From NCBI GenBank assembly GCA_947626425.1, contig CANQRX010000002.1:1-50322 (forward strand): DNA of 50,322 bases. The letters are read 5' to 3'. This document shows positions 6,734 through 36,080 of the stretch, in pieces; position 1 is the first letter of the stretch, and every line of letters starts with the position of its first letter. This stretch comes from an uncultured Bacilli bacterium. GTDB taxonomy: Bacteria > Bacillota_I > Bacilli_A > RF39 > UBA660. The notes under the pieces are model-generated. The model worked only from the letters and a program-made list of their open reading frames with translations, did no database searches and had not been told where the DNA came from. A program made the position numbers and the translations under genes.

Positions 6734-7111
6734 AATTTTCACCTCTATAAATAGAATGTATTACTTTTAAAAATTTATACATAATAATAATGGTGATTAA
6801 AATGGAAAATAAATTAAAAGGATTCTGTTTTAATGATGAATTAGTTAAAGAACCAATTAGTAAAGATGACTATGTGGAAAAAATTATTAAAATGGAAAAA
6901 TTAAATTGTTTTAAAATATAAGGATCTTAATTAAGGAATATCCTTATTTTTTTATTCTAATTATTCGACAATTTACTTATCAAGCATATATTATAATGAA
7001 TTTTGAGGTGATTTTCTTGACATCAATTAAAAAAATGTTTAGCATAATAAGCATCTTTTCAAAGCCGAAAAAACATGTTAAGATTTAACTAGAATGGAGG
7101 TTGTGCTTGGT

Positions 7112-7612
7112 ATGGAAAAAAATAAAAAAGGAATATTTAATGTATTAGATTTAGCAAAATATTTGAATTTTTTACATAATGATTTATACGATAGAAATAT
7201 ATCTCCTTTAAAATTGCAAAAAGTTTTGTTCTTTTTATTTGGCGAATGGGGAGCTTTTATAAAAAATTCATCAGCAGATAATGATGGTAAGGATTTAGTA
7301 AATTATTCCATGTATTTGTTTGATAGTGATTTTGAAGCATGGGTTTATGGTCCCGTAGTAATTGAAGTTTATAAAAAATTTAATAATGAAACATTATCTG
7401 AGGAAGAGATTTTTAATAGCTTCGAAAAAAAATATGTTGGACATTTTATTAAAGATTTGTGTAAAGAGCTTTTTGAGTTAAGTGATTTTCGATTAGTCGA
7501 ATTATCTCATCAAAAAAAATGTTGGAAAAATAATTACAAAGCAGAGGATACTTTTCATAACAAAATTATAAATAAGGATGATATTATTCATGAATTTGCA
7601 GGGGAAATATAA
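7112..7612 (+). CDS. Panacea (DUF4065) domain protein, SocA/PanA-like antitoxin
   Basis: GGAGG RBS before ATG 7112. ISPLKLQKVLFFLFGEWGAF is the hallmark Panacea/DUF4065 motif. Confidence 0.7.
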   Translation: MEKNKKGIFNVLDLAKYLNFLHNDLYDRNISPLKLQKVLFFLFGEWGAFIKNSSADNDGKDLVNYSMYLFDSDFEAWVYGPVVIEVYKKFNNETLSEEEIFNSFEKKYVGHFIKDLCKELFELSDFRLVELSHQKKCWKNNYKAEDTFHNKIINKDDIIHEFAGEI

Positions 7613-8195: not shown

Positions 8196-8272
8196 TGGTA
8201 GCCTGTACGGGGTTTGAACCCGTGAATACGAGCTTGAGAGGCGCGCGTGTTAAACCACTTCACCAACAGGCC
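8196..8272 (-). tRNA. tRNA-Glu (anticodon CUC), CCA encoded
   Basis: Reverse complement GGCCTGTTGGTGAAGTGGTTTAACACGCGCGCCTCTCAAGCTCGTATTCACGGGTTCAAACCCCGTACAGGCTACCA folds as a cloverleaf. It has a 7-bp acceptor stem (G1-U72), T arm ACGGG/TTCAAAC/CCCGT, and anticodon loop CTCTCAA. Acceptor, D and T arms closely resemble Bacillus tRNA-Glu. There is one C-U mismatch in the anticodon stem. Confidence 0.7.
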
Positions 8273-12425: not shown

Positions 12426-12454
12426 TTGAAAAGGTAAAAAAAATAGTATATACT
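12426..12454 (+). promoter_or_regulatory. Sigma-A-type promoter (TTGAAA-N17-TATACT) of paralog 1
   Basis: Hexamers and 17-nt spacing read directly. The same architecture is conserved upstream of all three paralogs. Confidence 0.6.
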
Positions 12455-12490
12455 GATAATAATAGAGGAAAAATAGTAAGGGATGAGTAA

Positions 12491-13105
12491 ATGAAAACAA
12501 AACATAAAATTTTATTGGTATTACTTTCATTATCATTGATAGCTAGTTTATATGTAGTTCAATCTTATGCTTTATGGTCTTACACCGCCCCTCAAACTAC
12601 AACAAACAGTGTTAGTTCTGGATGCTTTAATATACAATATAGTGAAACAAGTGGTTCAAATTTAAGTTTAACAAAGTCTTATCCTATAAGCGACGCAGAT
12701 GCTATAAAAAAAGAAACTAATCCGTATACTTTTACAATAACGAATAAGTGTACAATAAATACTGCTTATACAGTTACTTTGAATGTTATGAAAGGGAGTA
12801 ATTTAAGTACGTCATTTATTAAATATGCGTTAGTTTCAGGTACTACGACTCCAACTGGAAAATTTCTTAGTAAAGCTCCAACTAATACAGATACTACTAA
12901 TTATGAAAATAGTGCTAATATTCTAAATTCATATAAAGTTGCAACTGGTGTACTAGCCAATAACGGCGCCCATACATTTAAGTTGTATTTATGGATTGAT
13001 GAAAGTGCAACTACGGCAATTGCAGGACAAAAATTTGAAGCCGCTGTTTATGTCAACAATGTTCCAACTACAAGTGCTGCATCTGGTCCAATTATGAGCC
13101 AGTAA
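12491..13105 (+). CDS. Secreted/anchored protein, paralog 1 of 3, with TasA/SipW-like signal end (QSYALW)
   Basis: AAGGGA RBS. N-terminus MKTKHKILLVLLSLSLIASLYVVQSYALWSY, then SGCF, SYPISD, PYTFTITNKC, FKLYLWIDESA and AAVYVNNVPT. It is homologous to 13334-13951, 14091-14768 and residues 1-195 of the 39851-41695 product. Confidence 0.75.
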   Translation: MKTKHKILLVLLSLSLIASLYVVQSYALWSYTAPQTTTNSVSSGCFNIQYSETSGSNLSLTKSYPISDADAIKKETNPYTFTITNKCTINTAYTVTLNVMKGSNLSTSFIKYALVSGTTTPTGKFLSKAPTNTDTTNYENSANILNSYKVATGVLANNGAHTFKLYLWIDESATTAIAGQKFEAAVYVNNVPTTSAASGPIMSQ

Positions 13106-13267
13106 TATTCTCTTGATAATTTTAAATCTATTTAGGCAACTAAGATAATTGAAAATAGTTTTTTGAAAATAATTTCTTTAACTTTTTTAAATCTTTAACA
13201 TAAAAAAATTATTATCTTTTATTATGTCAAAGCTATAATTAGATTTTGTCAATTTATAAAATGTTTA

Positions 13268-13296
13268 TTGAAAAGATAAGAAAAATAGTTTATACT
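13268..13296 (+). promoter_or_regulatory. Sigma-A-type promoter (TTGAAA-N17-TATACT) of paralog 2
   Basis: Read directly. The conserved block continues to the RBS (..gataatagag..aaatagtaagggatg). Confidence 0.6.
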
Positions 13297-13333
13297 GATG
13301 ATAATAGAGAGAAAATAGTAAGGGATGGGTTTC

Positions 13334-13951
13334 ATGAAAACAAAATATAAAATTTTATTGGTATTACTTTCATTATCATTAATAGCCAGCTTATATATAG
13401 CCCAGTCTTATGCTTTATGGTCTTATACTGCCCCTCAAACTTCTACCAATAGTGTCAATTCGGGCTGCTTTAATATTACTTATACAGATACAGGGAGTTC
13501 CTCATTAAATTTATTACATAGTTTTCCAATAAGTGATACGGACGCATTAAGAATAGAGAGTCCATATACTTTTACAATTACAAATAGTTGCTCAATTAAT
13601 ACGGAATATACTGTTACTTTAAATGTAATAAATACTAGTACTTTAGATGCTGCAAATATTAAGTATGCTTTGGTTCCAAATAATGATAGTAATCCTACCG
13701 CTGGGAAATTTCTTAGTAGTGCTCCAATTAATAGTGATACTAATAATTATGACGCCAAAAGTACTATTAAAACTTCCTATAAATTAGCTAGTGGTGTGTT
13801 AGCACAAAATGGAACTGCAAAATTTAAGTTATATCTGTGGATAAAAGAGGAAGCAACAGATTCCATAAAAGGGCAAACATTTACATCGGCAGTTTATGTC
13901 AACAATGTTCCAACTAATAAAGGTGTAACTGGACCAACTATGAGTCAATAA
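13334..13951 (+). CDS. Secreted/anchored protein, paralog 2 of 3 (QSYALW signal end)
   Basis: Start chosen at MKTKYKILL by analogy with the other copies and by RBS position. Same conserved blocks as paralog 1. Confidence 0.75.
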   Translation: MKTKYKILLVLLSLSLIASLYIAQSYALWSYTAPQTSTNSVNSGCFNITYTDTGSSSLNLLHSFPISDTDALRIESPYTFTITNSCSINTEYTVTLNVINTSTLDAANIKYALVPNNDSNPTAGKFLSSAPINSDTNNYDAKSTIKTSYKLASGVLAQNGTAKFKLYLWIKEEATDSIKGQTFTSAVYVNNVPTNKGVTGPTMSQ

Positions 13952-14026
13952 ATTTTTAAATCTTATTTCTTTTAATAAAAAAGACATTAAAACATTTTTT
14001 GCTTTTGTTCGTTTTTAAAATGTTCA

Positions 14027-14055
14027 TTGAAAAGACAAGAAAAATAGTTTATACT
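14027..14055 (+). promoter_or_regulatory. Sigma-A-type promoter (TTGAAA-N17-TATACT) of paralog 3
   Basis: Read directly. Confidence 0.6.
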
Positions 14056-14090
14056 GATGATAATAGAGAAAAATAGTAAGGGATGAGGTC

Positions 14091-14768
14091 ATGAAAACAA
14101 AATATAAAATTTTATTAGGAATAATTTCTCTCGCGTTATTAGCTAGTTTATATATAGCTCAGTCTTATGCTTTATGGACTTTCACGGCCCCTCAAACTAC
14201 TACAAACAGTGTCAGTTCTGGTTGCTTTGATATAGAATACAGTGAAACAGCCAGTTCAACTTTGAATTTAACTCAGTCTTATCCTATAGATGACGCTCAA
14301 GCCTTAAGTAAAGAAACCCCATATACTTTTACAATTAAAAATAATTGTTCTATTAGTACTGAATATACTGTGACTTTAAATACATTAACTTCAAATACAT
14401 TAGATGATGCCAAAATTAAATATGCAATTGTGTCTGGAAGTAGCACTACTACAACTGGTAAAAAGTTATCTGAAGCCACGGCAAATGCTGATACTACAAA
14501 TTTTAATTTAGGTAGTACTTTAAAAAAATCTTATAAATTGGCTACAGGTGTATTAACGCAAAGTGGCTCTGTAACATTTAAGTTGTATTTATGGATCGAT
14601 GCTAGTGCCGGAAATGAAGTAATGAGTCAAAAATTTAATGCTGCTGTTTATGTTAACAATGTTCCAACTAATAAATCAGCAGCAAGTCCGACTATAAGTT
14701 CACCTAGTGTTGATGAAGGACCATCCTTTGAAGATGAAGTTCCTACTGATGAAAATGCTATTGAATAA
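14091..14768 (+). CDS. Secreted/anchored protein, paralog 3 of 3 (QSYALW signal end) with acidic C-terminal tail
   Basis: Same conserved blocks as paralogs 1 and 2, plus an extra SPSVDEGPSFEDEVPTDENAIE tail. Confidence 0.75.
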   Translation: MKTKYKILLGIISLALLASLYIAQSYALWTFTAPQTTTNSVSSGCFDIEYSETASSTLNLTQSYPIDDAQALSKETPYTFTIKNNCSISTEYTVTLNTLTSNTLDDAKIKYAIVSGSSTTTTGKKLSEATANADTTNFNLGSTLKKSYKLATGVLTQSGSVTFKLYLWIDASAGNEVMSQKFNAAVYVNNVPTNKSAASPTISSPSVDEGPSFEDEVPTDENAIE

Positions 14769-14778
14769 CGCTTAATGG

Positions 14779-14804
14779 ATAAAGATAACTAATCTTTATT
14801 TTTT
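14779..14804 (+). terminator. Rho-independent terminator after the three-paralog cluster
   Basis: ATAAAGAT-AACTA-ATCTTTAT 8-bp stem followed by T5. Confidence 0.6.
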
Positions 14805-14885: not shown

Positions 14886-16520
14886 ATGAAATCAGTGTCA
14901 ATAGGAAACGATGATTTTAGTGATTTAATAAAAAGTAATAGTTATTATGTCGATAAAACTAATGCTATTGAAGAATTATTAAAAAATAATAAAAAAGTAG
15001 TCTTATATACAAGACCGCGAAGATTTGGTAAAAGTTTGTTTATATCAATGTTAGAACATTTTTTTGACATTGATGAATCTTGTAGTAACAAAGATTTATT
15101 TAAAGGATTATATATATCCAAAAGTCCATATTTTAGTGAGTTTGGTAGTTTCCCAGTTATTAGTTTAACTTTTAAAAATTTAAAACAAAATACTTATGAA
15201 AGTGTTTATGCTCAGTTTGTTGCTATAATAAAACAAATATATGTTGATAAAAATTATGTTTTTGAGGTTTTAGATGATTCCGAAAAAGATTTATTCAACG
15301 GAATCAAAAATGGAACAGTTACGATTGAAGAATATAAATTATCAATATTTCTTTTATCAAGATGGTTAGAAAGGTATCATCAAAGGAAAGTTGTAATTTT
15401 AATTGATGAATACGATGTTCCAATTCAATGTGGTTATTTAAAAGGCTTTTACGATGAAGTAATAGATTTAATCAGCAGTGTTTTTTCGGCTTGTTTAAAA
15501 ACCAATAATTCTTTAAAAATGGGAATATTAACTGGTGTTTTACGAGTAAGTAAAGAATCAATTTTCAGTGATTTAAATAATTTAAAAGTATATGATATGA
15601 TGAGCTTTCATTATCTTGAATCATTTGGGTTTACGGAATCAGAAACAAAAGAATTATTAGAATATTATGGTTTAGAATTAACAAGTGATGTTAAAAATTT
15701 TTATGATGGATATAGTATGAATGGAGTAAGTATATATAATCCTTGGAGTATTCTAAATTATGCTGATGAAAAAATTTTAAATTCGTATTGGATAAATACT
15801 TCGGGAAATGATTTAATAATAAAATTATTAAGTGAAACAAGTAAAGAAGTTAAAATCGACATTGAAAAATTAGCAACTGGAGAAAGTATTTCATTTACCT
15901 ATAATGATAAATTAACCTATTTAGATTTGGATAAAAAACAAAGTAAAAATAATATTTTAAACTTAATGTATGCTTCAGGTTATTTAACAATCGATCAAGT
16001 TATTGATGAAGCATTTCGAAAGTACAGCGTAAAGATACCTAATGAAGAAGTAAAAATATTTATATTAAAAATTATTAGTTATGCTTATGCAAATGATGTA
16101 ATAGATGAATACGTTAGTAATTTTGGGGAGGCTTTAAAAAATGATAATAAAGAAGAAATGGAAAAAAGTTTAAATAAAATGTTAGAAAGTATGTCATATA
16201 TGGTAACTTGCGACAACTTTTATCATGGATATATGTTAGGAATTTTTCAAGGCTTTTTAAGAGGACAATATATTGTCAAATCAAACCGAGAAGGAGGATT
16301 AGGAAGATTTGATGTATTAATTGAGAAAAAAGATCGAAATTTTGGCTGTATTTTTGAATTTAAAATAGCTGAGAAAGAAAGTGAAATGGAAAATTTAGCA
16401 AGCCTTGCTAAAAAGCAAATGAAAGAAAAAGAATATTACAAAGAATTACAATTAGACAAAGTTGAAAATATAAAAGAATATGCTTTAGTATTTTATGAAA
16501 AGAAATGTGTTGTTAGGTAA
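14886..16520 (+). CDS. Predicted AAA-ATPase (PF09820-like) with C-terminal PD-(D/E)XK nuclease domain (PDDEXK_9-like), copy 1
   Basis: N-terminus IGNDDFSDLIKSNSYYVDKT..YTRPRRFGKSLFISMLEHFF is the signature of the predicted AAA-ATPase family. C-terminus GGLGRFDVLIE..IFEFK fits a PD-(D/E)XK core. Confidence 0.8.
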   Translation: MKSVSIGNDDFSDLIKSNSYYVDKTNAIEELLKNNKKVVLYTRPRRFGKSLFISMLEHFFDIDESCSNKDLFKGLYISKSPYFSEFGSFPVISLTFKNLKQNTYESVYAQFVAIIKQIYVDKNYVFEVLDDSEKDLFNGIKNGTVTIEEYKLSIFLLSRWLERYHQRKVVILIDEYDVPIQCGYLKGFYDEVIDLISSVFSACLKTNNSLKMGILTGVLRVSKESIFSDLNNLKVYDMMSFHYLESFGFTESETKELLEYYGLELTSDVKNFYDGYSMNGVSIYNPWSILNYADEKILNSYWINTSGNDLIIKLLSETSKEVKIDIEKLATGESISFTYNDKLTYLDLDKKQSKNNILNLMYASGYLTIDQVIDEAFRKYSVKIPNEEVKIFILKIISYAYANDVIDEYVSNFGEALKNDNKEEMEKSLNKMLESMSYMVTCDNFYHGYMLGIFQGFLRGQYIVKSNREGGLGRFDVLIEKKDRNFGCIFEFKIAEKESEMENLASLAKKQMKEKEYYKELQLDKVENIKEYALVFYEKKCVVR

Positions 16521-16535
16521 AGGAGGGATAATATC

Positions 16536-18170
16536 ATGAAATCAGTGTCAATAGGAAACGATGATTTTAGTGATTTAATAAAAAGTAATAGTTATTATGT
16601 CGATAAAACTAATGCTATTGAAGAATTATTAAAAAATAATAAAAAAGTAGTCTTATATACAAGACCGCGAAGATTTGGTAAAAGTTTGTTTATATCAATG
16701 TTAGAACATTTTTTTGACATTGATGAATCTTGTAGTAACAAAGATTTATTTAAAGGATTATATATATCCAAAAGTCCATATTTTAGTGAGTTTGGAAGTT
16801 TCCCAGTTATTAGTTTAACTTTTAAAAATTTAAAACAAAATACTTATGATGAAGTATATGAACAGTTTGTGATGCTTATAGAAAAACTATATACAGAAAA
16901 AAGTTATGTTTTAGAAGTATTAGATGAAGATGAAAAAAATAAATTCAAAAGAATAAAAAGTGGTCAAGCAAAATATAGTGAATATCAAGATTCGTTATTT
17001 CAATTATCAATATGGTTAGAAAGGTATCATCAAAAGAAAGTTGTAATTTTAATTGATGAATATGATGCTCCTATTCAAAGTGGTTATTTGAATGGCTTTT
17101 ATGATAAGGTAATAAATTTAATTAGAAGTGTTTTTTCAGCTTGTTTAAAAACCAATAAATCTTTAAAGATGGGAGTATTAACCGGAGTTTTACGAGTAAG
17201 TAAAGAATCAATTTTCAGTGATTTAAATAATTTAAAGGTATATGATATGATGAGCCTTCATTATCTTGAATCATTTGGTTTTACGGAAAAGGAAACTAAA
17301 GAATTATTAGAATATTATGGTTTAGAATTAACAAGTGATGTTAAAAATTTTTATGATGGATATAGTATGAATGGAGTAAGTATATATAATCCTTGGAGTA
17401 TTCTAAATTATGCTGATGAAAAAATTTTAAATTCGTATTGGATAAATACTTCGGGAAATGATTTAATAATAAAATTATTAAGTGAAACAAGTAAAGAAGT
17501 TAAAATCGACATTGAAAAATTAGCAACTGGAGAAAGTATTTCATTTACCTATAATGATAAATTAACCTATTTAGATTTGGATAAAAAACAAAGTAAAAAT
17601 AATATTTTAAACTTAATGTATGCTTCAGGTTATTTAACAATCGATCAAGTTATTGATGAAGCATTTCGAAAGTACAGCGTAAAGATACCTAATGAAGAAG
17701 TAAAAATATTTATATTAAAAATTATTAGTTATGCTTATGCAAATGATGTAATAGATGAATACGTTAGTAATTTTGGGGAGGCTTTAAAAAATGATAATAA
17801 AGAAGAAATGGAAAAAAGTTTAAATAAAATGTTAGAAAGTATGTCATATATGGTAACTTGCGACAACTTTTATCATGGATATATGTTAGGAATTTTTCAA
17901 GGCTTTTTAAGAGGACAATATATTGTCAAATCAAACCGAGAAGGAGGATTAGGAAGATTTGATGTATTAATTGAGAAAAAAGATCGAAATTTTGGCTGTA
18001 TTTTTGAATTTAAAATAGCTGAGAAAGAAAGTGAAATGGAAAATTTAGCAAGCCTTGCTAAAAAGCAAATGAAAGAAAAAGAATATTACAAAGAATTACA
18101 ATTAGACAAAGTTGAAAATATAAAAGAATATGCTTTAGTATTTTATGAAAAGAAATGTGTTGTTAGGTAA
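16536..18170 (+). CDS. Predicted AAA-ATPase with C-terminal PD-(D/E)XK domain, copy 2
   Basis: Same length (544 aa) and motifs as copy 1. Residues 1-104 and about 256-544 are identical to copy 1. Confidence 0.8.
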   Translation: MKSVSIGNDDFSDLIKSNSYYVDKTNAIEELLKNNKKVVLYTRPRRFGKSLFISMLEHFFDIDESCSNKDLFKGLYISKSPYFSEFGSFPVISLTFKNLKQNTYDEVYEQFVMLIEKLYTEKSYVLEVLDEDEKNKFKRIKSGQAKYSEYQDSLFQLSIWLERYHQKKVVILIDEYDAPIQSGYLNGFYDKVINLIRSVFSACLKTNKSLKMGVLTGVLRVSKESIFSDLNNLKVYDMMSLHYLESFGFTEKETKELLEYYGLELTSDVKNFYDGYSMNGVSIYNPWSILNYADEKILNSYWINTSGNDLIIKLLSETSKEVKIDIEKLATGESISFTYNDKLTYLDLDKKQSKNNILNLMYASGYLTIDQVIDEAFRKYSVKIPNEEVKIFILKIISYAYANDVIDEYVSNFGEALKNDNKEEMEKSLNKMLESMSYMVTCDNFYHGYMLGIFQGFLRGQYIVKSNREGGLGRFDVLIEKKDRNFGCIFEFKIAEKESEMENLASLAKKQMKEKEYYKELQLDKVENIKEYALVFYEKKCVVR

Positions 18171-20348: not shown

Positions 20349-21206
20349 ATGATTGATTTTACAAATGCTAAAGAAGAAATGAATAGTTATAAAGGTTCAG
20401 AAAAAAAGAAAACTTTAATTTATGACAATAAAAGATATTTAGTGAAATTTCCTGATCCAATAAGAAAAAAAAATAAAAATATTTCTTACATAAATAACGC
20501 TTTTTCTGAATATGTTGGAAGTAATATATTTAAGCTGGTGGGTTTTGAAACCCAAAATACAATATTGGGAGTTTATAAATATAATGATAAAGTTAAAATT
20601 GTATGTGCTTGTGAAGATTTTACTGATAAAAATCATGAATTATATGAGTTTGAAAATTTAGTTTTAAGTAGCAATCCTGATAAACAAATTAAAACAGAAT
20701 TAAAAGATATATTAGAAGTAATAGAAAATAGCAAATTATTAAATAAAAAAGATATAATTGAAAAATTTTGGGATATGTTTGTGATTGATAGTTTAATTGG
20801 CAATCCAGATCGCCATAATGGAAATTGGGGTTTTTTAGTAAACAAGCAAACAAATGATATTAAATTTTCACCAATTTTTGATTGTGGTTCGTGTTTAAAT
20901 CCGATGTTAGAAGATGAAGAATTACAAAAACTAACTGAAACAGAATTAAAAAATATAGCTATTAATTGTTATTCATGTTTTACTCAAAATAATAAAAAAA
21001 TAAATTATTTTTTATATATTAAAAGTTTAAAAAATGAAAATTGCAATAAAGCTATTACTCGTAATTTTAAAAAAATTGATATAAATGAAATTAACAATTT
21101 TTTAGATAATATGGATTTAATATCAAATGTTAGAAAAGAATTTTATAAAAAAATTATTAATTTAAGATATGAGATATTAAAAAAAGTTTTTAATGTTTTA
21201 AATTAA
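20349..21206 (+). CDS. HipA-C-like kinase domain protein
   Basis: DSLIGNPDRHNGNWGFL and SPIFDCGSCL resemble the HipA/CtkA catalytic loop (D-x-H-x-x-N) and the following D-x-G region. No adjacent HipB-like gene. Confidence 0.5.
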   Translation: MIDFTNAKEEMNSYKGSEKKKTLIYDNKRYLVKFPDPIRKKNKNISYINNAFSEYVGSNIFKLVGFETQNTILGVYKYNDKVKIVCACEDFTDKNHELYEFENLVLSSNPDKQIKTELKDILEVIENSKLLNKKDIIEKFWDMFVIDSLIGNPDRHNGNWGFLVNKQTNDIKFSPIFDCGSCLNPMLEDEELQKLTETELKNIAINCYSCFTQNNKKINYFLYIKSLKNENCNKAITRNFKKIDINEINNFLDNMDLISNVRKEFYKKIINLRYEILKKVFNVLN

Positions 21207-21280: not shown

Positions 21281-22661
21281 ATGAAAATAGAAAATTATAA
21301 GTTAAAAACAAGTAAAAAAGCAAAAATATTGATTGGAAGTATGGTAGGAATAATGGCTCTAGGGGGGGGGGTATCTACTAAATAAAAGTTTAGGAAAATA
21401 CCAAGTCGAACAAAGTTTTCCCATAATGAATGGGAAAATTCAAGCAAACAGTGGTGATGTTTCAATCATTGCTATTAAAGTTGATGGAGCTGTAGTAGAT
21501 GAAATTCCAGCTAAAGGTTCAGGAAAATATTTTGAAAGTGCGGAATGTTCAAATGGAGCTACGGGATCATGGGATCGAACGAATTGGCAATTTTTATTAA
21601 ATACAACCAAAAAAACCAAATGTACATTAAATTTTACAACAACAAAAAGTACAACTGGTGAACAAAGTGGTGCAAGTAAAATGGAAGATTTATTATCTCA
21701 AGAAGAAGATAAAGGATCAGGAATAACTATTGTCAGTGATGATAATAACATTAGATATATTGGTCAAAATCCTAGTAACTATATTTATTTTAATTGTAAA
21801 GATAGTACAACTCAAAACGCCGAAAATTGTGAAACATGGCGAATAATAGGATTAATGGATGGAATAAAAACCAAAGCCGGAAAAACGGAAAGATTGTTAA
21901 AAATCATAAGAGAAAAATTACCTGTTTCTTTAAGTTGGGACTCATCTGCTTCTAGTGTAAATCAAGGCTATGGAGTAAATGAATGGAGTCAAGCAGATTT
22001 AATGACTGTCTTAAATGGCGATTATTTTAAAGGCCAAAAAGGAACTGATAAATGTTATAGTAGTTCTGGCGTATCAACAACAGACTGTCCAGATTGGATC
22101 CAGTATGGTTTAAAAAAATCAGCCCAAGATATGATCGAAGAAGTGGTTTGGAATACGGGAACGGCCGCAGTAACAGAAAACACTTGGGAAAAAGGAAATA
22201 TGCCAGTAGTTCAATATATATGGGAACGAAGTGATTTTACAGGAAAGCAATGTAATGGTGGAAGTTATTGTAACGACGATGTTCAAAGACAAACCACATG
22301 GGAAGGCAAAGTAGGTTTGATGTATCCATCGGACTATGGTTATGCCACCGATGGTGGGAAAGACCAAGTGAAAAGAATGCAATGTTTATATACACCATTA
22401 TATGATTGGAATGATAACAGTAATTGTTATAGTAATGATTGGCTATATGATAGTCAAAATTATCAATGGACAATGACTCCTGCGCCGTATTCTTCGTATG
22501 CTAGCGCTGTGTTCATTGTCCACGCAATCGGGCGTGTCTACTACCGCAATGCCTACAATGCTAACGCGGCTCGCCCCGTCGTTTATTTAAAGTCTTCGGT
22601 AAAAATTACTGGGGGGACAGGCTCTGATTCTGATCCATTTCAATTAAAATTAGAAGAATAA
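21281..22661 (+). CDS. Phase-variable surface protein with C-terminal lectin-like domain; currently frameshifted (OFF) at a G10 tract
   Basis: ATG 21281 encodes MKIENYKLKTSKKAKILIGSMVGIMALGGG, then stops at 21383-21385. With G9, the frame continues YLLNKSLGKYQVEQSFPIMNGKIQ.. into ORF 21426-22661. The C-terminal domain (WRIIGL, YPSDYGYAT, RPVVYLKS) is shared with 39851-41695 and 46537-47938. Confidence 0.7.
21362..21371 (+). repeat. Homopolymeric G10 tract inside signal-anchor codons
   Basis: Counted directly as 10 consecutive G in a roughly 30% GC genome. It encodes the GGG at the end of the TM helix. Confidence 0.9.
22478..22583 (+). other. DGR variable-region-like segment (GC-rich, A-poor) at the 3' end of 21281-22661
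   Basis: About 56% G+C by hand count. AAY/TAY codons are interspersed with A-free codons (..cgc aat gcc tac aat gct aac gcg gct cgc ccc gtc gtt). Confidence 0.45.
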
Positions 22662-25016: not shown

Positions 25017-25144
25017 TTTCTCACCTTCTATTAACTAAATTAATATTACCATACATATAATGAAATTTAAAGTTTTAAAAAGTAAAGTAGTTGAAAAATA
25101 ATGATAATTTTGATAAAGTTATATTAAGAATTGAGGCGAAGATA

Positions 25145-25897
25145 ATGAAAGGAAAAGCCGTGTTAATTTTATTATTTATAATTATTTTGTCATGTCATCA
25201 AGTAAATGCTGAATGCAACAATAATTTACGAAGTGAAGCTGCCAATGTAACTGCTAATTATGTATTGGGGGAAGTAGTTGTAGATAATAAAGGGGTTGAA
25301 CACCCTGAACTAGATGTGGAAAAAATTAAAGAAGAAATTCAAAACAGTGCCGTCGCAGAAAATTTATCAACAAGTGATTATACAATTGTCGATATCGTTT
25401 TATTAAAAGTTTATAATATTACAAAAAATTTATATGTGACTGTTGAAGAAAGTACGGAAAACACCTTAGATACTTACTATTACGAAAATACAAACGATGG
25501 TGAATTGACCATCCGAGTACCAGACACCGATAAAATTCGTGATTATAAAGTTCGCATTTTTTCTAACGACAATTCTTGTCTAAATGAAGAAATTACCTCT
25601 TTGCCTTCGGTCAAAACGCCAATGTATAACCCTTATTCTGAATATGAAATTTGTTTAAACCAAACTAAATATTATTGTCAACCATATGTAACTACCGAGA
25701 TCACAATCACCGAAGAACAACTGTTTGCTGAATTATACAAAGAAGATGAAAACAATAATAACAATTCAGAAATTAACCAAAAAGAAAATATTGTGGTAAA
25801 AATTTTGAAAATTGGGTTACCAATCGGAATTGGCATACTGGCTTTAATTGTAGCAATTATATCAATTAGTAAAAAAGATAGGAGGAGTGACAAATGA
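25145..25897 (+). CDS. Type-I membrane protein, paralog 1 of 3 (signal peptide, 4 conserved Cys, C-terminal TM anchor)
   Basis: MKGKAVLILLFIIILSCHQVNA/ECNNNLRSEAANV.., conserved ..KTPMYNPYSEYEICLNQTKYYCQPYVTTEIT.., and a C-terminal TM helix plus basic tail. The TTG-extended start in the ORF track is unlikely. Confidence 0.7.
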   Translation: MKGKAVLILLFIIILSCHQVNAECNNNLRSEAANVTANYVLGEVVVDNKGVEHPELDVEKIKEEIQNSAVAENLSTSDYTIVDIVLLKVYNITKNLYVTVEESTENTLDTYYYENTNDGELTIRVPDTDKIRDYKVRIFSNDNSCLNEEITSLPSVKTPMYNPYSEYEICLNQTKYYCQPYVTTEITITEEQLFAELYKEDENNNNNSEINQKENIVVKILKIGLPIGIGILALIVAIISISKKDRRSDK

Positions 25898-26628
25898 AAA
25901 AAATCGGTTATTTAATTTTAGCAATATTTTGTTTATCGGCCAAAAATGTGGTAGCAGAGTGTAATCTCGATTTAAGAACTCAAGCAGCCAATGTCAAAAC
26001 AAACTATGTTATGAGTGAAATAGTTCTTGATGAATTTGGTAATGAAGTAACAAATATAAGTGTTGAAGAGGCCAAAAAAGACATTGAAGCCCATCAAGTT
26101 GCTGAAAATGTTAATACAAGTAAGTATTCTATATCAGAAATAGTTCTTTTAAAAATTTATAATTTAACAGATAAATTGTATGTGACTGTAAACGAAAGTA
26201 AAAGTAATACTTTAACTACCTATCATTACCAAGATTCTAATAATGGCGAAATAACTATAAAAGTTCCTGATGTTGATACAATTCGGGAATACAAAGTTCG
26301 CGTCTTTTCTAATGATACATCTTGTTTAGGAGAGGAAATATCATCTCCACCTTCCGTAAAAACCCCAATGTATAATCCTTATTCCGAATATGAAGTATGT
26401 TTAAATCAATCAAAATATTACTGTCAGCCTTATGTAACAACTGAAATAACTACTAATGAAGAAGATATTTTTAATGAATTATATAAAGATGAGGCTGTAA
26501 CAGACGAGGAAGAACAAGTTAAAACTAATTATTGGAAATCTTTAAAAGTGATAATTCCTTTTCTAACTGTTTTGATCTTATTAGGAGCAATTGGTTATAT
26601 ATATTTTAAGAAAAAAGGAAAAAAATAA
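25894..26628 (+). CDS. Type-I membrane protein, paralog 2 of 3
   Basis: Start overlaps the previous stop (translational coupling). Same architecture and conserved blocks as paralog 1. Confidence 0.7.
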   Translation: MKKIGYLILAIFCLSAKNVVAECNLDLRTQAANVKTNYVMSEIVLDEFGNEVTNISVEEAKKDIEAHQVAENVNTSKYSISEIVLLKIYNLTDKLYVTVNESKSNTLTTYHYQDSNNGEITIKVPDVDTIREYKVRVFSNDTSCLGEEISSPPSVKTPMYNPYSEYEVCLNQSKYYCQPYVTTEITTNEEDIFNELYKDEAVTDEEEQVKTNYWKSLKVIIPFLTVLILLGAIGYIYFKKKGKK

Positions 26629-26642
26629 AAGAGGAGAAGCTT

Positions 26643-27401
26643 ATGAAAAAAATACTTTTTTTATTAATTTTGATGATTTATCTTACGATAGATGTCAAAG
26701 CTACCTGTAATAATCAACTCCGTTCGCAGGCTGCCAATGTAAGTGTTAATTATGTTTTAGGGGAAGTTGCAATTACCGAAGATGGTGTTGAACACCCTGA
26801 AGTTGATCTTGAAGAATTAAGAAAAACTATTGCGGAAGGAGCGAAAATAGATCCCAACTTACGGGTAAGCGATTACTTAATTGCGGACATTGTCAATTTA
26901 AAAATTTATAATTTAACAGATAAATTATATGTAACTGTCGAAGAACAAGACGAAGGAATGATTGGCACTTTTACCTATGATGATGTAGTCGATGGCGAAA
27001 TTACAATTCGTGTTCCCGATACTGAAAAAATTCGAGAATATAAAGTTCGCGTCTTTTCTAATGATGAGAGCTGTAAGGATGAAGAAATAACATCACCTCC
27101 AGCCATTAAAACCCCAATGTATAACCCATACTCGGCTTATGAAATATGTGCTGATCAAAATGCCAATAAATATTATTGTCAAGATTATGTTGTAACTGAT
27201 GTAAATATTGATGAAGATGAATTATTTAAAAATTGGAATAATGGAAATGGTCAGAATGAAAATAATTTAAGCGACCAAACAAAAAGAACTTTTAAATTTC
27301 TCCTTTTATATGTTTTGCCTGTAACATTAATAATTTTGGTAATTTTTGTAGGTATTAAAATAAAAAGAAAGAAAAATAAAAATAAGGTTAATAATTTATA
27401 G
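26643..27401 (+). CDS. Type-I membrane protein, paralog 3 of 3
   Basis: GAGGAG RBS. Same architecture (TCNNQLRSQAANV.., KTPMYNPYSAYEICADQNANKYYCQDYV, C-terminal TM plus KRKKNKNK). Confidence 0.7.
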   Translation: MKKILFLLILMIYLTIDVKATCNNQLRSQAANVSVNYVLGEVAITEDGVEHPEVDLEELRKTIAEGAKIDPNLRVSDYLIADIVNLKIYNLTDKLYVTVEEQDEGMIGTFTYDDVVDGEITIRVPDTEKIREYKVRVFSNDESCKDEEITSPPAIKTPMYNPYSAYEICADQNANKYYCQDYVVTDVNIDEDELFKNWNNGNGQNENNLSDQTKRTFKFLLLYVLPVTLIILVIFVGIKIKRKKNKNKVNNL

Positions 27402-30400
27402 GTGATGAATGTGAAAAAAATTGGTTTGTTGATAATAATTAGTTTATTAAGCATTAATGTTGTTAATGCAGCAAAAGTAAGCGATTTAGATTACTATGAC
27501 AGAGAAGAAGAAAAATACAAATTAACAGCTGATGGCTTCAGCGCTGAATCTTCAACTTTAGAAAATGATTATTTAAAACCCGGTAGTCGAATATTAACAA
27601 AATATGACGCTTATTTAAAAGATAAAAATATAGGAGCATTTTTTTGTATATCTCCTTCTAAACCACATGGCGCAACGTATACAATAAAAAGCCAAATTGA
27701 TATCGATTCAACGAGTAAATCCCAAAAAAAAGCTTTCTATGCGGCTTTACTTAAGGCCTATCAAGAATTTATCTCGAGAGGTTTTATAAAAACTAGTACC
27801 AAAAATTATGGTGATCGAACTCGACAACTTATTACTTTGGTGTACCGTTGGATTGCTAGCTACTATGGATATTTGGATACCGATTATGCCCGTGGGGGTG
27901 TTTCTGAAGATAACTATGTTATATACACATACAGTAAACGCAAAAGTTGGGGAAGTAAAAATTGGAAAGATGATAATGGTGATGGCCTAGCGACAGTTGC
28001 TAGAGATATACTTGCTAATGCAATTCGTGTTGGTAATAAAGTAAAAAACGGTAAAACAATCAGAGAATTAGCTAATAAAGGGGAACTTTGGGATATTAAT
28101 TTTAATGTAACTGCTACCGTTTTAGATAATACAGACAAAAGCAAAGTTAAAATTCAACTAGACATTGTTCCTAAAGGAGCTACGAAAGGAACAGATATAA
28201 ATTACGACGATTTTAAAGTTGAGTGTGATTATGATTTTGAGTGTAGTAAATTTAAAATGACAGGTGATATTAAAGTTAATGGAAAAAAAGGTAAAAGATT
28301 TACTTTAACCGTAAATACTAAAAATGGTCGAACAAGTGCTGCCGAAAAAGCTGGTAAACCGTATGGAATAACTATTAAAACAAATTATAATGATATTCGC
28401 GATGGGGCATTTCTTTATGAAATGACACCAGCTAGTAAATATGTTCAAGAAATGCTTTTAATTTTATATTTTCGTCCTGATTTTGAAATTATTTCCACAG
28501 AAACTCCTAGTTGGGAAGACAAATGCTACTGTCAACGTAATAGTAAAGGAAAATTGACAGGACGTTATGAATATAAAAAATATACCGAAAGTAAGGTTAT
28601 TACAGGAACAATAGATTTATTAGATACCGAGAAAGCCGAAAAATATGAATGCCCTCCACCAGAAGATTGTGGTGTAAAAACAGTTTGCCAGTGTGATTAC
28701 GATGAAAATAACGTGTTCACTAATCAATATGCCGTTACTTATAAAAGTGAAAAAGACACTAAGGTTGAAAAATTCTCAGCAACGGATACTGAAAAAAGTG
28801 AAAAATATGCCTGCCCTCCAGCAGATTCATGTGTTAAAACTACTTGCAGTTGTCAATTTGACGATAATGTCTATACTGGAAATTATGTAGTAGAGCAAAC
28901 TGAAAACGGCGAAACAACGGAAATTATTGTTTCCGCTAATGATGTAAAAGCAAGTGAATATGGCTGTCCGCCAGTTACTTATTGTAGCGAATGTTCTTGT
29001 GAAACTGACACTAAAGGTAATTTTACAGGAAATTATTTATATTATAAAAATGGTAATTTATTTGAAAAATTTAAATTAGATGATGCGACTAAAGCTACTA
29101 AATATAGTTGTCCACCAGCCACTGATTGTGCAAATGATTGTTTTTGTCAAGTAGATGAAAATAATGAATATACCGAAAAATATCAATACAATGGTTTTGA
29201 AGATGGACGTTTAGTAACCGAAGTATTTGATTTTGATGATCCACGAGCTGAAAACTATAATTGCCCAAGTAGTAAAACATGTCATCCCCAAAGAAAAGAA
29301 TGTACTTATGAAGATGATGGAACATATTATGGTAAAAATGGTGTTGAAGTAACCAAAGATGAATATATTGCTCAATGTGTAACTAGTTGTAAAACTGAAC
29401 CTACTGGTGATGGAAATACCAAGTATTATTGCAACAGTGACAGCGAACTTATAAGTGGACCAGAATGTAGTAAAGAAGAATACGAAGAAGATTGTATATG
29501 TACACCTATGAAAGAAAAATGTGATAACGGAGATACGGCTTCTTGTGAAGAATACCAAGATAAATGTCTTCCAATTCCTTCGGATTGCAGTGCCAAAGTA
29601 ACTATTCCCGATGAGTGTGCTAATTTTGATGCAGACACCATGTTAGAAGCTGAAATTGATGATGTAAATCTTGATCCTGGTTGTGGTAAAGATAACTCAA
29701 TCAAAAAATGTGTAGTTAATGGAACCGATCAAGCTGGCAACTCTTATTTACATTTTAAAAATAATTATTGTACTGTTTGGTGTAAAGAAAAATATAATTT
29801 TACGTTACCAACAGCAAGACATACTAGAAGTGGAGGTTACTTTACATTAAGTGCTAAAATAACTGGAGAAAGAACATGCTATGCTACAGGAAGTGATGAC
29901 ACAACAACTCCAATTGATGAGCCAAGATTTCATAGAGATTTAGAGGATGCCGAAGCGGCATTACAACTGGCTTACGAAAATTATATAAGTGCCAAAAATA
30001 ATAAAGAAAACTCGGAAAGAACGTTAGAAAATTTAAATAATCAAACAACAAGTATCGAAAATGCAGTATCATATGCTCAATCAGAACTTACAATTGCCCA
30101 ATCATTATATTCAAGTGCTCGATCAGCATTGTCAAGTGCCGAATCAGAATTATCAAGTGCCGAATCAGAATTATCAAGTGCTCAAAGTGCTTTAAATTCA
30201 ATACCTGAAGGTGATGAAGCTGCAAGGACAAGTGCGTTAGCTAATGTTTCTAGAGCCAGTATTAGAGTTTCAAACGCACAAACTGCTGTTCACATAGCAC
30301 AAGCTGATATTTCTAGTGCCGCATCAAGAGCACAAAGTGCCCAAAATTCTCTAAGCGATGCCATCACTGCCAGAGATAATCATTATATAAGCATAACGAA

Positions 30401-31745
30401 TACGGAAAGAAATATTGAACTCGCAAAACAAGAGATGGCAAAAAATGAAGCCTCAATGAACGACTTAAATTCCAAAATTCAAACCTTTTTCAATGAATAT
30501 AATAGTTGTGCAAGTTGGGAAGTAGAATTTAAGTTTGATCCAAAAATTGATTATTGGTATAACGAAAAATATATGGATATTCTAACCACAGGTAATAGCG
30601 GAACATTTGAAGCAGATGGAACAACATCGCTAGATAGCACTGAAGAATATTGTTCCGGAATTGCTGATGAAAATTTTGAATGTGAAAATGGCCAAACAAG
30701 CCAAGTAAAATATAAAGATCAAAATTATGTATATTGTACAATCGAAGGGTGTGTAACTAAAAGTTCTAGATTAAATGATGTAAAGTGGATTCGTAAAAAT
30801 GAAAAATCTTCTAATTCTTATCGACCTCATGCCAACTTTTCAACATCTACTGGTTTTGGAACAATAAAAAGAAATGCCCCAGAGTGTAATGGAAACGACT
30901 GTTTATTTACGAAGTTGCCTATTAATGCTTTACCAGTTGAATTATCAACCGGCCGTGGAGTATTCCCATTTGTTTTGAAATTTAGAGATATCGGTCAATA
31001 TGCTAGTGGTTCTTTAGGAAGATTACTTGGAGCAAGTCAAAGTGTTGTAACAAGCCTATCAAGAGCTGATTCAATGTGTTCAACTCCTGGTTATAAAGCA
31101 ACAACAAGTACCTCATATGTATGTGAATATATTAATGACTGCTCTGAGTGTGAAGCTGATTGTATCAATTGTGGTAGCACCCCATATGACCCTGGTGACC
31201 CATATGACCCACCTAACATACCCGAGACTGAATGTAAAGGTCAAACATGTCCTTTAACTTGCTCATCGTGTATATATGATGGTGGTAAAACACAATTTTC
31301 ATTCCGGACAGTTTCCGTAAATAATGTTTTCCCAAATTCATGCAATAAGGCCCTAAGCAACTGTCGAAAAGAAGGATATAACTGGGATACTAATAATCCA
31401 AAAGCTAAAAAAACCTTAGAAGAAATTGAGGAAAAAGGCGAGTCAGCATATCAAGAACCAGAATATTCCTATACCCTTAATCCAGGTCAATTGCAAAATA
31501 TAAGAAAATATAATGATAAAGCCGGTACATATTTAAATACAACAATTCCTGATTCCGGCGATACAGCCTTAAAATGTGAAAGATTAGATATCAATGGAAA
31601 ATTATATAATGTAAAATGTACAAGTTCCTTTTTAGACCAAAATTCTCAAACTTATTTTAGCGAACAAAAAAGAAACACAACCTTTACATTATGGGATACT
31701 AATAATGTTAATGACTTAATTGGCATCGGACCATCTTGGAAATAA
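27402..31745 (+). CDS. Giant secreted Cys-rich protein 1 (1447 aa), putative surface adhesin/fibre component
   Basis: Signal peptide KKIGLLIIISLLSINVVNA/AK. The N-terminal domain of about 370 aa is shared with 32071-35589. Five modules of about 50 aa (C-x-C ... C-P-P-x-x-x-C) lie at about 28524-29300. There is a Ser/Ala-rich helical insert, and a Cys-rich conserved C-terminal region ending GIGPSWK. No LPXTG and no C-terminal TM. The real start may be ATG 27405 or GTG 27411 (AGGTGA at 27400-27405). Confidence 0.8.
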   Translation: MMNVKKIGLLIIISLLSINVVNAAKVSDLDYYDREEEKYKLTADGFSAESSTLENDYLKPGSRILTKYDAYLKDKNIGAFFCISPSKPHGATYTIKSQIDIDSTSKSQKKAFYAALLKAYQEFISRGFIKTSTKNYGDRTRQLITLVYRWIASYYGYLDTDYARGGVSEDNYVIYTYSKRKSWGSKNWKDDNGDGLATVARDILANAIRVGNKVKNGKTIRELANKGELWDINFNVTATVLDNTDKSKVKIQLDIVPKGATKGTDINYDDFKVECDYDFECSKFKMTGDIKVNGKKGKRFTLTVNTKNGRTSAAEKAGKPYGITIKTNYNDIRDGAFLYEMTPASKYVQEMLLILYFRPDFEIISTETPSWEDKCYCQRNSKGKLTGRYEYKKYTESKVITGTIDLLDTEKAEKYECPPPEDCGVKTVCQCDYDENNVFTNQYAVTYKSEKDTKVEKFSATDTEKSEKYACPPADSCVKTTCSCQFDDNVYTGNYVVEQTENGETTEIIVSANDVKASEYGCPPVTYCSECSCETDTKGNFTGNYLYYKNGNLFEKFKLDDATKATKYSCPPATDCANDCFCQVDENNEYTEKYQYNGFEDGRLVTEVFDFDDPRAENYNCPSSKTCHPQRKECTYEDDGTYYGKNGVEVTKDEYIAQCVTSCKTEPTGDGNTKYYCNSDSELISGPECSKEEYEEDCICTPMKEKCDNGDTASCEEYQDKCLPIPSDCSAKVTIPDECANFDADTMLEAEIDDVNLDPGCGKDNSIKKCVVNGTDQAGNSYLHFKNNYCTVWCKEKYNFTLPTARHTRSGGYFTLSAKITGERTCYATGSDDTTTPIDEPRFHRDLEDAEAALQLAYENYISAKNNKENSERTLENLNNQTTSIENAVSYAQSELTIAQSLYSSARSALSSAESELSSAESELSSAQSALNSIPEGDEAARTSALANVSRASIRVSNAQTAVHIAQADISSAASRAQSAQNSLSDAITARDNHYISITNTERNIELAKQEMAKNEASMNDLNSKIQTFFNEYNSCASWEVEFKFDPKIDYWYNEKYMDILTTGNSGTFEADGTTSLDSTEEYCSGIADENFECENGQTSQVKYKDQNYVYCTIEGCVTKSSRLNDVKWIRKNEKSSNSYRPHANFSTSTGFGTIKRNAPECNGNDCLFTKLPINALPVELSTGRGVFPFVLKFRDIGQYASGSLGRLLGASQSVVTSLSRADSMCSTPGYKATTSTSYVCEYINDCSECEADCINCGSTPYDPGDPYDPPNIPETECKGQTCPLTCSSCIYDGGKTQFSFRTVSVNNVFPNSCNKALSNCRKEGYNWDTNNPKAKKTLEEIEEKGESAYQEPEYSYTLNPGQLQNIRKYNDKAGTYLNTTIPDSGDTALKCERLDINGKLYNVKCTSSFLDQNSQTYFSEQKRNTTFTLWDTNNVNDLIGIGPSWK

Positions 31746-35000: not shown

Positions 35001-35589
35001 TGAATGTGTTGGTGACGATTGTAAGTTTGAAGATGAAGAAGAAAATTGCGAAGGTCCAACTTGTCCATTAACATGTGTAAACTGTGTATTTGATGGTCAA
35101 GAAGCAACTTATACCTTTAGAGCTGTGTCCCTTGCTAATTTATTCCCAAATGAATGTGATGAAAATTCTGATAGTAGTGAATGTCGTACAACCGGCTATA
35201 ACTGGGACGTTGGTGAAAAAGCTAGTTTAACTAAGAAAGCAATCCAAGAAGAAGGTAATAATATCTATATTGAACCAGAATATTCATATACAATGAATTC
35301 CTCACAACTAAGTGCTATTAGAGAATATAATCAAAAAGTTGGTTCATATTCTAATACCACAACTGGAGCATTCTTTAACAACGAACCAGCATTGAAATGC
35401 AATGTTGTTGAAATAAATGGAATTCAATATGAGGTTGAATGTTTATCTACATTCTTATCAAACGGAAATGGTAAATACTTTACCGAAAATAAACGAAATA
35501 CTGAATTTGAACTATGGTCAAATACAGAATATTGCTTAAGCGGTAGCTGTTTAGATCGTAAAAAAGGCGTAGGACCGTCTTGGAAGTAG
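32071..35589 (+). CDS. Giant secreted Cys-rich protein 2 (1172 aa), paralog of 27402-31745
   Basis: GGGGGA RBS and signal peptide (..CLKNTQA/AEV). Shares the N-terminal domain, one C-x-C...C-P module and the entire Cys-rich C-terminal region (..YCKVWCKEKYEFSLPTAKYTQSGGYF.., ends GVGPSWK) with protein 1. Contains four 36-aa tandem repeats. Confidence 0.8.
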   Translation: MKKKLTIFLLSLSLFLGVCLKNTQAAEVYDRVKSGYKISGTFTNTGISYFLEVGYKYGAPSTGSYNAYKNGIDGIFICISPDKDAGTYYKAVTEVNPDSPSVKNKNTRAFYVAVIKAYQIMVDSGEITTKKSNGRYSYTDRQKFLLIVRWLASKYGLLDTSHPSSSTTPAGNYKKYVYSDRSKYWNTSNSTIKRAEAVTKAAIKVGDKILKGSTYQKLIDNGDVWGARWESTAPTVETNAKKPNLVTIKFDVKAKNSIQKINYKDFKVECNYGYKCKDVTIKTKKETTKKGKEKQYISVSIVVDTTNGKKHKAQNAGQPYGVVVKTNFYDYHDSSHLFLFNPTVSTKQKMLLIRDYNQSMQIVTKFVPEWEDICSCQKDSNGNYTGKYELKTIVNGVVKTEEFGFNDKKAKKYDCPDSSKCVSEPNPSCQTPDESDDGNYHCKDGEVCDEEKYKEDCDTGKKPSCQTPDESDDGKYHCKDGEVCDEEKYKEDCDTGKKPSCQTPDESDDGKYHCKDGEVCDEEKYKEDCDTGKKPSCQIPSESDDGNYHCKDGEVCDKDEYEDDCLCPELKDKCEENPDDPACGEYKEKCPNCSATVTVPNNCNDFDAESTVDGVISDINETASSCNPTANLVKTCVIDKKDQAGSSFEATNEIKNNPYCKVWCKEKYEFSLPTAKYTQSGGYFQLTMKIAAKRDCYVSAADDPDNPIDKTKFLSDLSTAETAVKNAYNEYSKLNNDANLSALNSAKEKVESIISDFNSCSNGWSNNFVYNPEIEYDYYNDYLTNSKGTFEKIEGTDTMTSEDTYCSGDTDESYNCKSGASNTMQTETQSYENCDAQGCSVKTAQISTAKWIQKTKIVANAQYQPKEKFSTYTSYGIIKIDEPRCNGKDCLYTRLPDSSLPVQLTTGKGVFPFTFTFKNIGQSNTDNNLGRLIGSDNSIVKAFNELPDEYRCSKDNATDAYGGYVCHYINNCDGCDFECVGDDCKFEDEEENCEGPTCPLTCVNCVFDGQEATYTFRAVSLANLFPNECDENSDSSECRTTGYNWDVGEKASLTKKAIQEEGNNIYIEPEYSYTMNSSQLSAIREYNQKVGSYSNTTTGAFFNNEPALKCNVVEINGIQYEVECLSTFLSNGNGKYFTENKRNTEFELWSNTEYCLSGSCLDRKKGVGPSWK
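33349..33780 (+). repeat. In-frame tandem repeat, 4 x 108 bp (36 aa: PSCQTPDESDDG-N/K-YHCKDGEVCDEEKYKEDCDTGKK)
   Basis: Units start at 33349, 33457, 33565 and 33673. Units 2 and 3 are identical. Units 1 and 4 share a different set of synonymous variants, and unit 4 diverges at its 3' end. Confidence 0.9.
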
Positions 35590-36042: not shown

Positions 36043-36080
36043 AAAATTGCTTTAAAAAATATTAGTTAGGAGGAATAAAA

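Follow-up and report, generated by a model that had tools for sequence, protein, structure and literature searches.

TasA and CalY are today regarded as fibre proteins, and the signal peptide of TasA is cut exactly at a motif homologous to the one described below (PMC9674648). In the structure 8aur_A, the TasA fibre chain begins at A28, directly after TWA. AbpA, the bundling pilin of Pyrobaculum calidifontis (PDB 7UEG), is processed by a general signal peptidase with no dedicated peptidase encoded nearby, and its donor strand is N-terminal, directly after the cleavage site (PMC9245690). Here, we analyzed three tandem paralogous genes (the triplet, 12426-14804) in a 50,322-nucleotide stretch of contig CANQRX010000002.1 from an uncultured Bacilli bacterium; this whole stretch is referred to as the window. 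With a rough probability of 0.45, the triplet encodes secreted donor-strand fibre or surface-scaffold subunits, and long relatives display adhesin domains on the assembly. The window belongs to a Bacillota chromosome of low GC content and encodes EzrA, ThiI and RecG. The source sample is a rabbit-gut metagenome, and the triplet sequence is present only in the DNA runs of one rabbit-gut sample.

All three genes are located on the forward strand. Paralog 1 (12491-13105) encodes 204 residues; residues 1-27 form the signal peptide, and the predicted cut SYA↓LW falls between nucleotides 12571 and 12572. The mature part of paralog 1 is predicted to contain one disordered N-terminal segment followed by one β-sandwich. 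Paralog 2 (13334-13951) is 205 residues in length, counted from the ATG that aligns with those of the other two paralogs; this is also the length of the database protein P0002. One alternative in-frame ATG at 13325 would give 208 residues; it sits within the ribosome-binding site and is therefore probably not the start. Paralog 3 (14091-14768) is 225 residues in length and ends in an acidic C-terminal tail of ~20 residues. The original prediction, made from the sequence of the window, had described three tandem paralogs with shared motifs and SYALW(S/T) ends, and all of these were seen in the open reading frames (ORFs) and their alignment. The pairwise protein identity is 63-67%; SGCF.I.Y, SYPI(S/D)D, PYTFTI.N.C, FKLYLWI and AAVYVNN are all present, and the signal peptides end in QSYALWS (paralogs 1 and 2) and QSYALWT (paralog 3). 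The identical three-gene layout is found at the same place in one independent assembly (L160). In this near-identical strain, the third paralog (6001-6674 of L160) is frameshifted into pieces of 175 and 57 residues, which may reflect an assembly error (the coverage is low, 3x) or genuine inactivation. The C-terminal NNVPT(T/N) of the triplet proteins is also conserved; it was considered as a sortase signal and rejected, because no hydrophobic segment and charged tail follow it.

Each gene is preceded by its own TTGAAA-17-TATACT promoter, located at 12426-12454, 13268-13296 and 14027-14055 on the forward strand for paralogs 1, 2 and 3, respectively. In paralog 1, the promoter is followed by one conserved leader of ~35 nucleotides that contains the ribosome-binding site AAGGGA. 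The three promoters are the top three sigma-70-type matches of the region, each scoring 10/12. Promoter-like sites are not enriched overall (15 versus 17.8 in shuffled sequences); the evidence for the promoters is their conservation across the triplet. The identity among the three copies is 82-89% over the 80 nucleotides 5' of each ATG and 82-90% over the first 99 coding nucleotides, which cover the signal peptide and the motif. It is 68-70% over the remaining coding sequence and 48-49%, equal to random, over the 120 nucleotides further upstream. Owing to this gradient, we conclude that constraint is stronger on the promoter, leader and signal end than on the protein body. No intrinsic terminators were found between the triplet genes. 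The region scan and the upstream identity thus confirm the separate promoter and conserved leader that had been proposed for each gene.

Neither Pfam nor NCBIfam gave any match to the three triplet proteins, and one word-indexed search returned 8 relatives only. A profile search of 1.84 billion representatives of clusters at 50% identity identified 6095 relatives at E ≤1e-3 and 3453 at E ≤1e-10. The N-terminal module is a very large family that has no Pfam or NCBIfam model. The match always lies at target residues 1 to ~195; the targets contain either ~190-230 residues alone or the module plus 100-650 extra residues. The C-terminal parts of 78 long members contain DUF285 (23/78), LRR families, DUF6273, Listeria-Bacteroides/InlB repeats (Flg_new) and BspA LRR_5. 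DUF285, LRR, DUF6273, InlB-type and BspA domains are typical surface-binding domains. In one-genome-per-species contigs we found 327 relatives, which belong to metagenome-assembled genomes (MAGs) labelled uncultured Bacilli, Firmicutes, Tenericutes or 'Mycoplasma sp. CAG'; a few family-bearing bins are labelled Muribaculaceae. The hosts are rabbit, mouse, chicken, ruminant and human, in all cases from the gut, and several genomes carry many copies of the family. Housekeeping genes surround the family members in 79 loci. One conserved gene order around family pairs (13-19 loci; products of 132, 286, 365, 213 and 209 residues) was considered as a Tad-like operon. Pfam identified these neighbours as MscL, MiaA, CCA-adding enzyme, DnaD and Nth, and the order is therefore lineage synteny, not a system. 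In one lineage (L020, L023, L026, L027, L032, L045, L051, L054, L060 and L077; ~10 kb in each), one ~200-residue member (…TSYSYYS…) is always followed by one ~365-residue member (…TYAYLSF…), and this pair of small and long members is conserved between miaB and mscL.

The signal end is well conserved in the family. Among 367 non-redundant members, position -3 is S in 247 and T in 115, position -2 is Y in 340 and F in 22, and position -1 is A in 297 and S in 66. The small residues at -3 (S/T) and -1 (A/S) are present in 99% of the members; after the cleavage site there is one aliphatic or aromatic residue, with W, L, Y or F next to it. Such a pair of small residues is what the (-3,-1) rule of type I signal peptidases demands. 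Because this rule is kept at 99%, the signal peptides are likely cleaved by signal peptidase and are unlikely to serve as permanent anchors. Q35 (324/367), N39 (359/367) and C45 (359/367) are near-invariant, and C87 is invariant in an alignment of 51 sequences; since both cysteines are conserved, a disulfide between C45 and C87 is plausible.

The structure of the family was modelled using AlphaFold2 (AF2). The full-length model (9 sequences) has a mean predicted local distance difference test score (pLDDT) of 77; residues 3-29 form one helix, residues 24-42 are disordered and strands follow. The model of the mature domain (59 sequences) has a pLDDT of 83 and a predicted template-modelling score of 0.80; its first 13 residues are disordered, and the rest is predicted to fold into a jelly-roll-type β-sandwich. 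The residues directly after the cleavage site have pLDDT <50 in the AF2 models. The fold search was run with the mature domain, because the N-terminal helix of the full-length model obscured the matches. The best match in the PDB is AbpA (7ueg_A; E 3.4e-3, probability 0.97, template-modelling score 0.38), which is below the usual thresholds. CanA, the cannulae protein, ranks 10 in the Foldseek list; the other matches are generic jelly-rolls, many of them carbohydrate-binding. One viral structure library returned generic jelly-rolls only. The relationship of AbpA to TasA, like that of the triplet family, shows only at the profile level. Different from the triplet family, AbpA and CanA are archaeal, and the operon context of AbpA (abpB and others) is not the same; the structural likeness stands at a template-modelling score of 0.38 and E 3e-3.

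Compared to TasA and CalY (PDB 5OF1 and 8AUR), the triplet family shows several similarities. Both have a Sec signal end of small-aromatic-small residues followed by an aromatic one (TWA↓AF in TasA, SYA↓LW in the triplet), and in both a conserved N..(F/V)..G.(L/F).(L/I) stretch is located closely after the cleavage site. Both have a β-rich body of ~200 residues with a jelly-roll-type fold, which is a predicted one for the triplet family, and both have the features of high-copy structural genes. Using hhalign, the family profile was aligned to a 40-sequence TasA/CalY profile over 63 columns (P 4.4e-4, probability 34%) and to TasA alone over 60 columns (P 0.0033). The aligned segments are SYAyW with TWAAF, N..i.TGCF.i with n.fAAGTLDL, and SINL..YP with fdLSNLKP, spanning the signal peptide to the first strands; G42 and L44, which are invariant in TasA, align with G44 and F46 of the family. 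The TasA/camelysin family is represented in Pfam by PF12389, which has a gathering score of 22.5 bits. Any match to it was obtained for only 3/51 short and 1/78 long relatives. A few relatives pass the gathering score: P0249 reaches 24.9 bits (residues 3-125) and one 505-residue protein of L063 reaches 29 bits; the latter also matches the family hidden Markov model (HMM; E 6e-8, positions 1-157). This bridging protein is encoded at 19017-20534 of L063 (MAG SIG198, the closest genome relative), has a classical …ASYAYF… end and is located just after ezrA-iscS; no counterpart was seen at the matching place in the window. Intermediates in L061, L043 and L067 lack the cysteines and contain TG.L and N.GS in place of the family TGCF and N.C. 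Sequence searches of the PDB with the family profile, P0249 and the bridging protein gave no meaningful match. Taken together, the sequence comparisons point to a distant and weak link between the family and TasA.

Based on these observations, we propose a model for the triplet. The genes would produce abundant Sec-exported proteins of ~20 kDa, and these would lose their signal peptide at (S/T)-Y-(A/S)↓ through a type I signal peptidase. With no dedicated sipW encoded in the neighbourhood, the general signal peptidase may be responsible. The mature protein would form the jelly-roll-type β-sandwich, and the conserved ~13-17 residues in front of it (LWSYTAPQTTTNSV) have no structure in the monomer model. 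If the family behaves like TasA, AbpA and CanA, this stretch could serve as the donor strand that is inserted into the sandwich of the next subunit; a segment that is conserved, yet predicted to be disordered, fits such a role. Polymerization into fibres or a surface scaffold would take place outside the cell and would need no ATPase, chaperone or sortase, and the three paralogs may be alternative or co-assembling major subunits. The long relatives (DUF285, LRR, DUF6273 and InlB-type), including one 614-residue protein encoded in the window, would join the same polymer via the shared module and display their binding domains, some of them under phase-variable control. The near-consensus promoters and conserved leaders of the triplet, which suggest strong expression, count for the fibre or scaffold reading.

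A broader version of this model is possible but doubtful. In it, the module would be the self-polymerizing, TasA-like donor-strand platform of uncultured gut Bacilli: the small subunits would build the fibre or coat, and hundreds of interchangeable adhesins, partly phase-variable through homopolymer tracts, would plug in, giving a counterpart of adhesin-tipped pili that is free of chaperone, sortase and ATPase. The proposed logic, many small subunits plus larger ones that add a binding domain, is like that of chaperone-usher pili (FimA and the two-domain adhesin FimH). However, the triplet system has no chaperone or usher and occurs in Gram-positive-type organisms, its module is N-terminal to the adhesin domain, and there is no sequence relationship between the two.

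Several observations weigh against the fibre or scaffold reading. Foldseek gave no match to the PDB at E ≤1e-3, and TasA (5of1 and 8aur) is not among its top 50 PDB matches. The alignment with the TasA profile is confined to the N-terminal third of the family, and signal-peptide composition could be partly behind it. The four window proteins that carry the module have no PF12389 match at E ≤0.1, and TIGR04088, the SipW-cognate signal model, has no match in the window proteins (E ≤0.1) or in 51 members (E ≤1), for which the NCBIfam scan gave no TasA model either; the window proteins do not belong to PF12389 or TIGR04088 in the strict sense. Across 79 family loci and 80 Tad-like loci (~2.2 Mb), no sipW or tapA neighbour was found, sipW being searched for by its catalytic motif. 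A sipW neighbourhood is not universal in the TasA-like class, as AbpA is also without one. In addition to these points, the triplet family differs from TasA and CalY in its conserved cysteine pair, its frequent fusion to large adhesin domains and its confinement to uncultured gut Bacilli lineages; the similarity is limited to the first ~63 columns.

The original prediction had compared the signal end with that of SipW-dependent TasA/CalY proteins and the body with a TasA-like sandwich, and had proposed fold and profile comparisons as the check. For the signal end, the motif is at the expected cleavage position with small residues at -3 and -1 (n = 367), but the TIGR04088 match is missing. For the body, the jelly-roll-type β-sandwich is predicted and AbpA is the top match, but the scores are below significance and TasA stays outside the top 50. 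Likewise, the fold and profile comparisons returned AbpA as the best match and the 63-column TasA alignment, but with a template-modelling score of 0.38 and a probability of 34%. The statement that no SipW-type peptidase is encoded in the window held: no S26/SipW-type peptidase was found by Pfam among the window ORFs of at least 100 residues, or by catalytic-motif regular expression among all window ORFs of at least 50 residues.

The 614-residue protein (ORF 39851-41695, forward strand) also bears on how the module is used. As the original prediction stated, it carries a homologous domain with an ITYAYWNV end: over residues 1 to ~197, it is 29-31% identical to the triplet, and the module (39851-40447), ending its signal part in …GITYA↓YWNV, is the fourth copy of the family in the window (family HMM E 3e-57). 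The rest of the ORF (40448-41695) encodes one Ig-like stretch and one C-terminal domain of ~300 residues. Residues 206-613 are 60% identical (E 1e-167) to a 418-residue ORF (46682-47938) located ~5 kb downstream, and residues 347-614 (~270 residues) are 35% identical to a 411-residue ORF; the ~300-residue C-terminal domain is common to all three proteins. The promoter of the 614-residue gene (39795-39821, forward strand) consists of TTGACA, AAC, ten G (G10, 39804-39813), TA and TATGAT. This is one of three G10 tracts in the window. The other two (21362-21371 and 46618-46627) fall in the signal-peptide coding parts of the 411- and 418-residue ORFs, whose ATG codons are at 21281 and 46537, respectively. 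As assembled, the leader MKIENYKLK…ALGGG of these two proteins runs into a stop; G9 or G12 would rejoin the frame. Owing to the homopolymer in its promoter spacer, the 614-residue gene is likely phase-variable, and the 411-, 418- and 614-residue genes look like a phase-variable surface-protein set. The 614-residue gene is a chimera, in which the family module is joined to a surface-protein body that the window also encodes at other places.

One adhesin-like body is thus joined either to the family module or, in two paralogs, to a plain membrane-anchor leader at the N-terminus. Because the same body follows either one, the module is a portable N-terminal unit for export or attachment. This interchange also counts against the fibre or scaffold reading, because a simple tether would account for it as well as a fibre subunit would, and it is the chief argument for the tether alternative. 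This main alternative, which we nevertheless hold to be on the unlikely side, is that the module is cleaved and surface-located and does not polymerize: it would be a monomeric stalk, or a wall- or ligand-binding base, for variable adhesins, with the ~200-residue copies acting as blank versions or secreted binding proteins. That one 400-residue body can follow the module or a plain anchor leader is in line with this explanation, as are the large C-terminal adhesin-type domains in about half of the family, the weakness of the TasA link beyond the N-terminal 63 columns and the many carbohydrate-binding jelly-rolls among the fold matches. However, it leaves unexplained why W29, Q35 and N39 are near-invariant in a segment predicted to be disordered, and why stand-alone copies are so frequent and have such strong promoters. 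Moreover, the Pfam and NCBIfam scans revealed no known wall-binding domain or sortase signal.

An uncleaved signal-anchor is improbable. According to this explanation, the N-terminal helix would stay in the membrane with (S/T)YA(L/Y)W as an aromatic belt at the interface, and the protein topology would be type II, with the β-sandwich outside the cell. AF2 does build residues 3-29 as a single helix, aromatic residues do follow the hydrophobic stretch, and the paralogs of the 614-residue body carry a plain N-terminal anchor. The strict preference for small residues at -3 and -1 is however a signature of signal peptidase, the hydrophobic core of 17-19 residues has the length of a signal peptide, and the homologous motif of TasA is cut exactly there (PMC9674648).

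The original prediction had further suggested that the triplet might be the missing pilin of the Tad-like machine encoded at 35599-39762. This locus contains the genes for one DUF5411 protein (35599-36042), one CpaB-like protein (36081-36914), one TadA/VirB11-like ATPase (36925-38061) and two platform-like membrane proteins without T2SSF match (38078-39762). The DUF5411/CpaF/PilC system was earlier predicted as a secretion-related operon in Clostridia (PMC9523054). Using the DUF5411 protein, we retrieved 80 related metagenome loci (L080-L159). Their conserved order is one ~250-residue protein (signal peptide and C-terminal transmembrane segment), one giant Cys-rich protein, DUF5411, one or two CpaB-like proteins, the ATPase and two membrane proteins; these are followed by two small MKEATGELN… ORFs (78-100 residues), two MREAIGGTW… ORFs (156-178 residues) and one ParA-like protein of ~340 residues. 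Sequence of 1.5 kb or more past the second membrane gene is available in 28 loci, and all of them have Flp-like ORFs of the MKEATGE type after the platform genes (28/28); TadE/pseudopilin-like ORFs of the MREAIGG type are present in 20/28. The Flp-like, TadE-like and ParA-like genes of the relatives were not found in the window, where the 614-residue gene occupies their place; the intergenic DNA before it aligns loosely with the pilin promoter of the relatives. The Tad-like machine may be decaying in this genome, or its pilin genes may be located elsewhere in the genome.

That the triplet proteins are pilins of this machine, with the 614-residue protein as minor pilin or tip adhesin, is very improbable, and we regard the idea as close to refuted. 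The position of the 614-residue gene directly 3' of the platform-like genes, where the relatives keep their pilin genes, speaks for it, as does the absence of a Flp-like gene from the window. In L075, moreover, the family member is located just upstream of tadZ-tadA-tadB-tadC; this is the only one of the 79 family loci with these genes adjoining. Like Flp/TadE (type IVc) pilins, the triplet proteins also have a short basic N-terminus followed by a hydrophobic helix, and one family copy is located beside Tad-like genes. However, the relatives of the machine carry their own pilin-like ORFs, and no SYALW-family member was found in the 80 loci, even at E 1; the tempting assignment to the neighbouring machine is thereby corrected. 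A secretion ATPase homologue is present in just 2/79 family loci; in one of them, L073, the PilB-type gene is ~7.5 kb from the family member and on the opposite strand. The family N-termini (MKTK(H/Y)KILL… and MEKKTNTFNYF…) contain no class III (prepilin) leader ending in Gly, whereas the pilin-like genes of the relatives start with M(K/R)EA(T/I)G↓. Different from the helical pilins of 40-60 residues, the triplet proteins have a β-sandwich of 170 residues, and their linkage to Tad genes is not conserved. In addition, the 614-residue gene is a chimera with a surface-protein body and carries a separate G10 promoter, and the class to which the module would belong assembles without ATPase. Since the relatives have their own pilin genes and the family shows neither Tad linkage nor a Gly leader, the missing-pilin suggestion found no support. 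A secreted metalloprotease is scarcely credible: it is suggested only by the historical name of PF12389 ('camelysin, peptidase M73'), which few relatives match, while HExxH or other metal-binding motifs are absent, each paralog has at most one His, and TasA and CalY are now seen as fibre proteins (PMC9674648).

More than 6000 clusters at 50% identity begin with the module, and all of them stem from human and animal gut Bacilli (RF39-like or 'Tenericutes') that are uncultured and poorly known. Should the module polymerize in the way TasA does, the donor-strand fibre class of TasA, AbpA and CanA would extend across much of the gut microbiota, and it would become clear how bacteria with reduced genomes, lacking LPXTG anchoring, display LRR, DUF285 and BspA-type adhesins. 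At the minimum, a family model would allow thousands of 'hypothetical proteins' to be annotated as secreted surface proteins.

Several other features of the window were also observed. A second triplicated family, located at 25091-27401 upstream of the Tad-like locus, encodes three proteins of ~250 residues with a signal peptide and a C-terminal transmembrane segment. It is followed by two giant Cys-rich paralogs, 27402-31745 (1447 residues) and 32071-35589 (1172 residues); neither the ~250-residue nor the giant proteins have a Pfam match. Both groups probably belong to the DUF5411 system, because homologues are located upstream of DUF5411 in most related loci. Immediately 3' of the triplet, there are two tandem paralogs of 544 residues (14886-16520 and 16536-18170), which contain AAA-ATPase_like and PD-(D/E)XK (PDDEXK_9) domains. 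One adhesin and sortase pair is located at 41767-42519 and 43191-44009 (reverse strand). The adhesin is 250 residues in size; it contains a pectate-lyase-like adhesive domain and ends in NPQTA, a hydrophobic stretch and an RK tail. This end is a sortase-B-type sorting signal, and the sortase gene adjoins on the opposite strand. Genes of toxin-antitoxin or defence type are scattered over the window at 854-1294, 7094-7612 and 20349-21206 (one AbiEii-like gene, one SocA/Panacea-domain gene and one HipA_C-like gene). The Rfam and tRNA scans identified a single tRNA-Glu (8196-8272), which is unrelated to the triplet.

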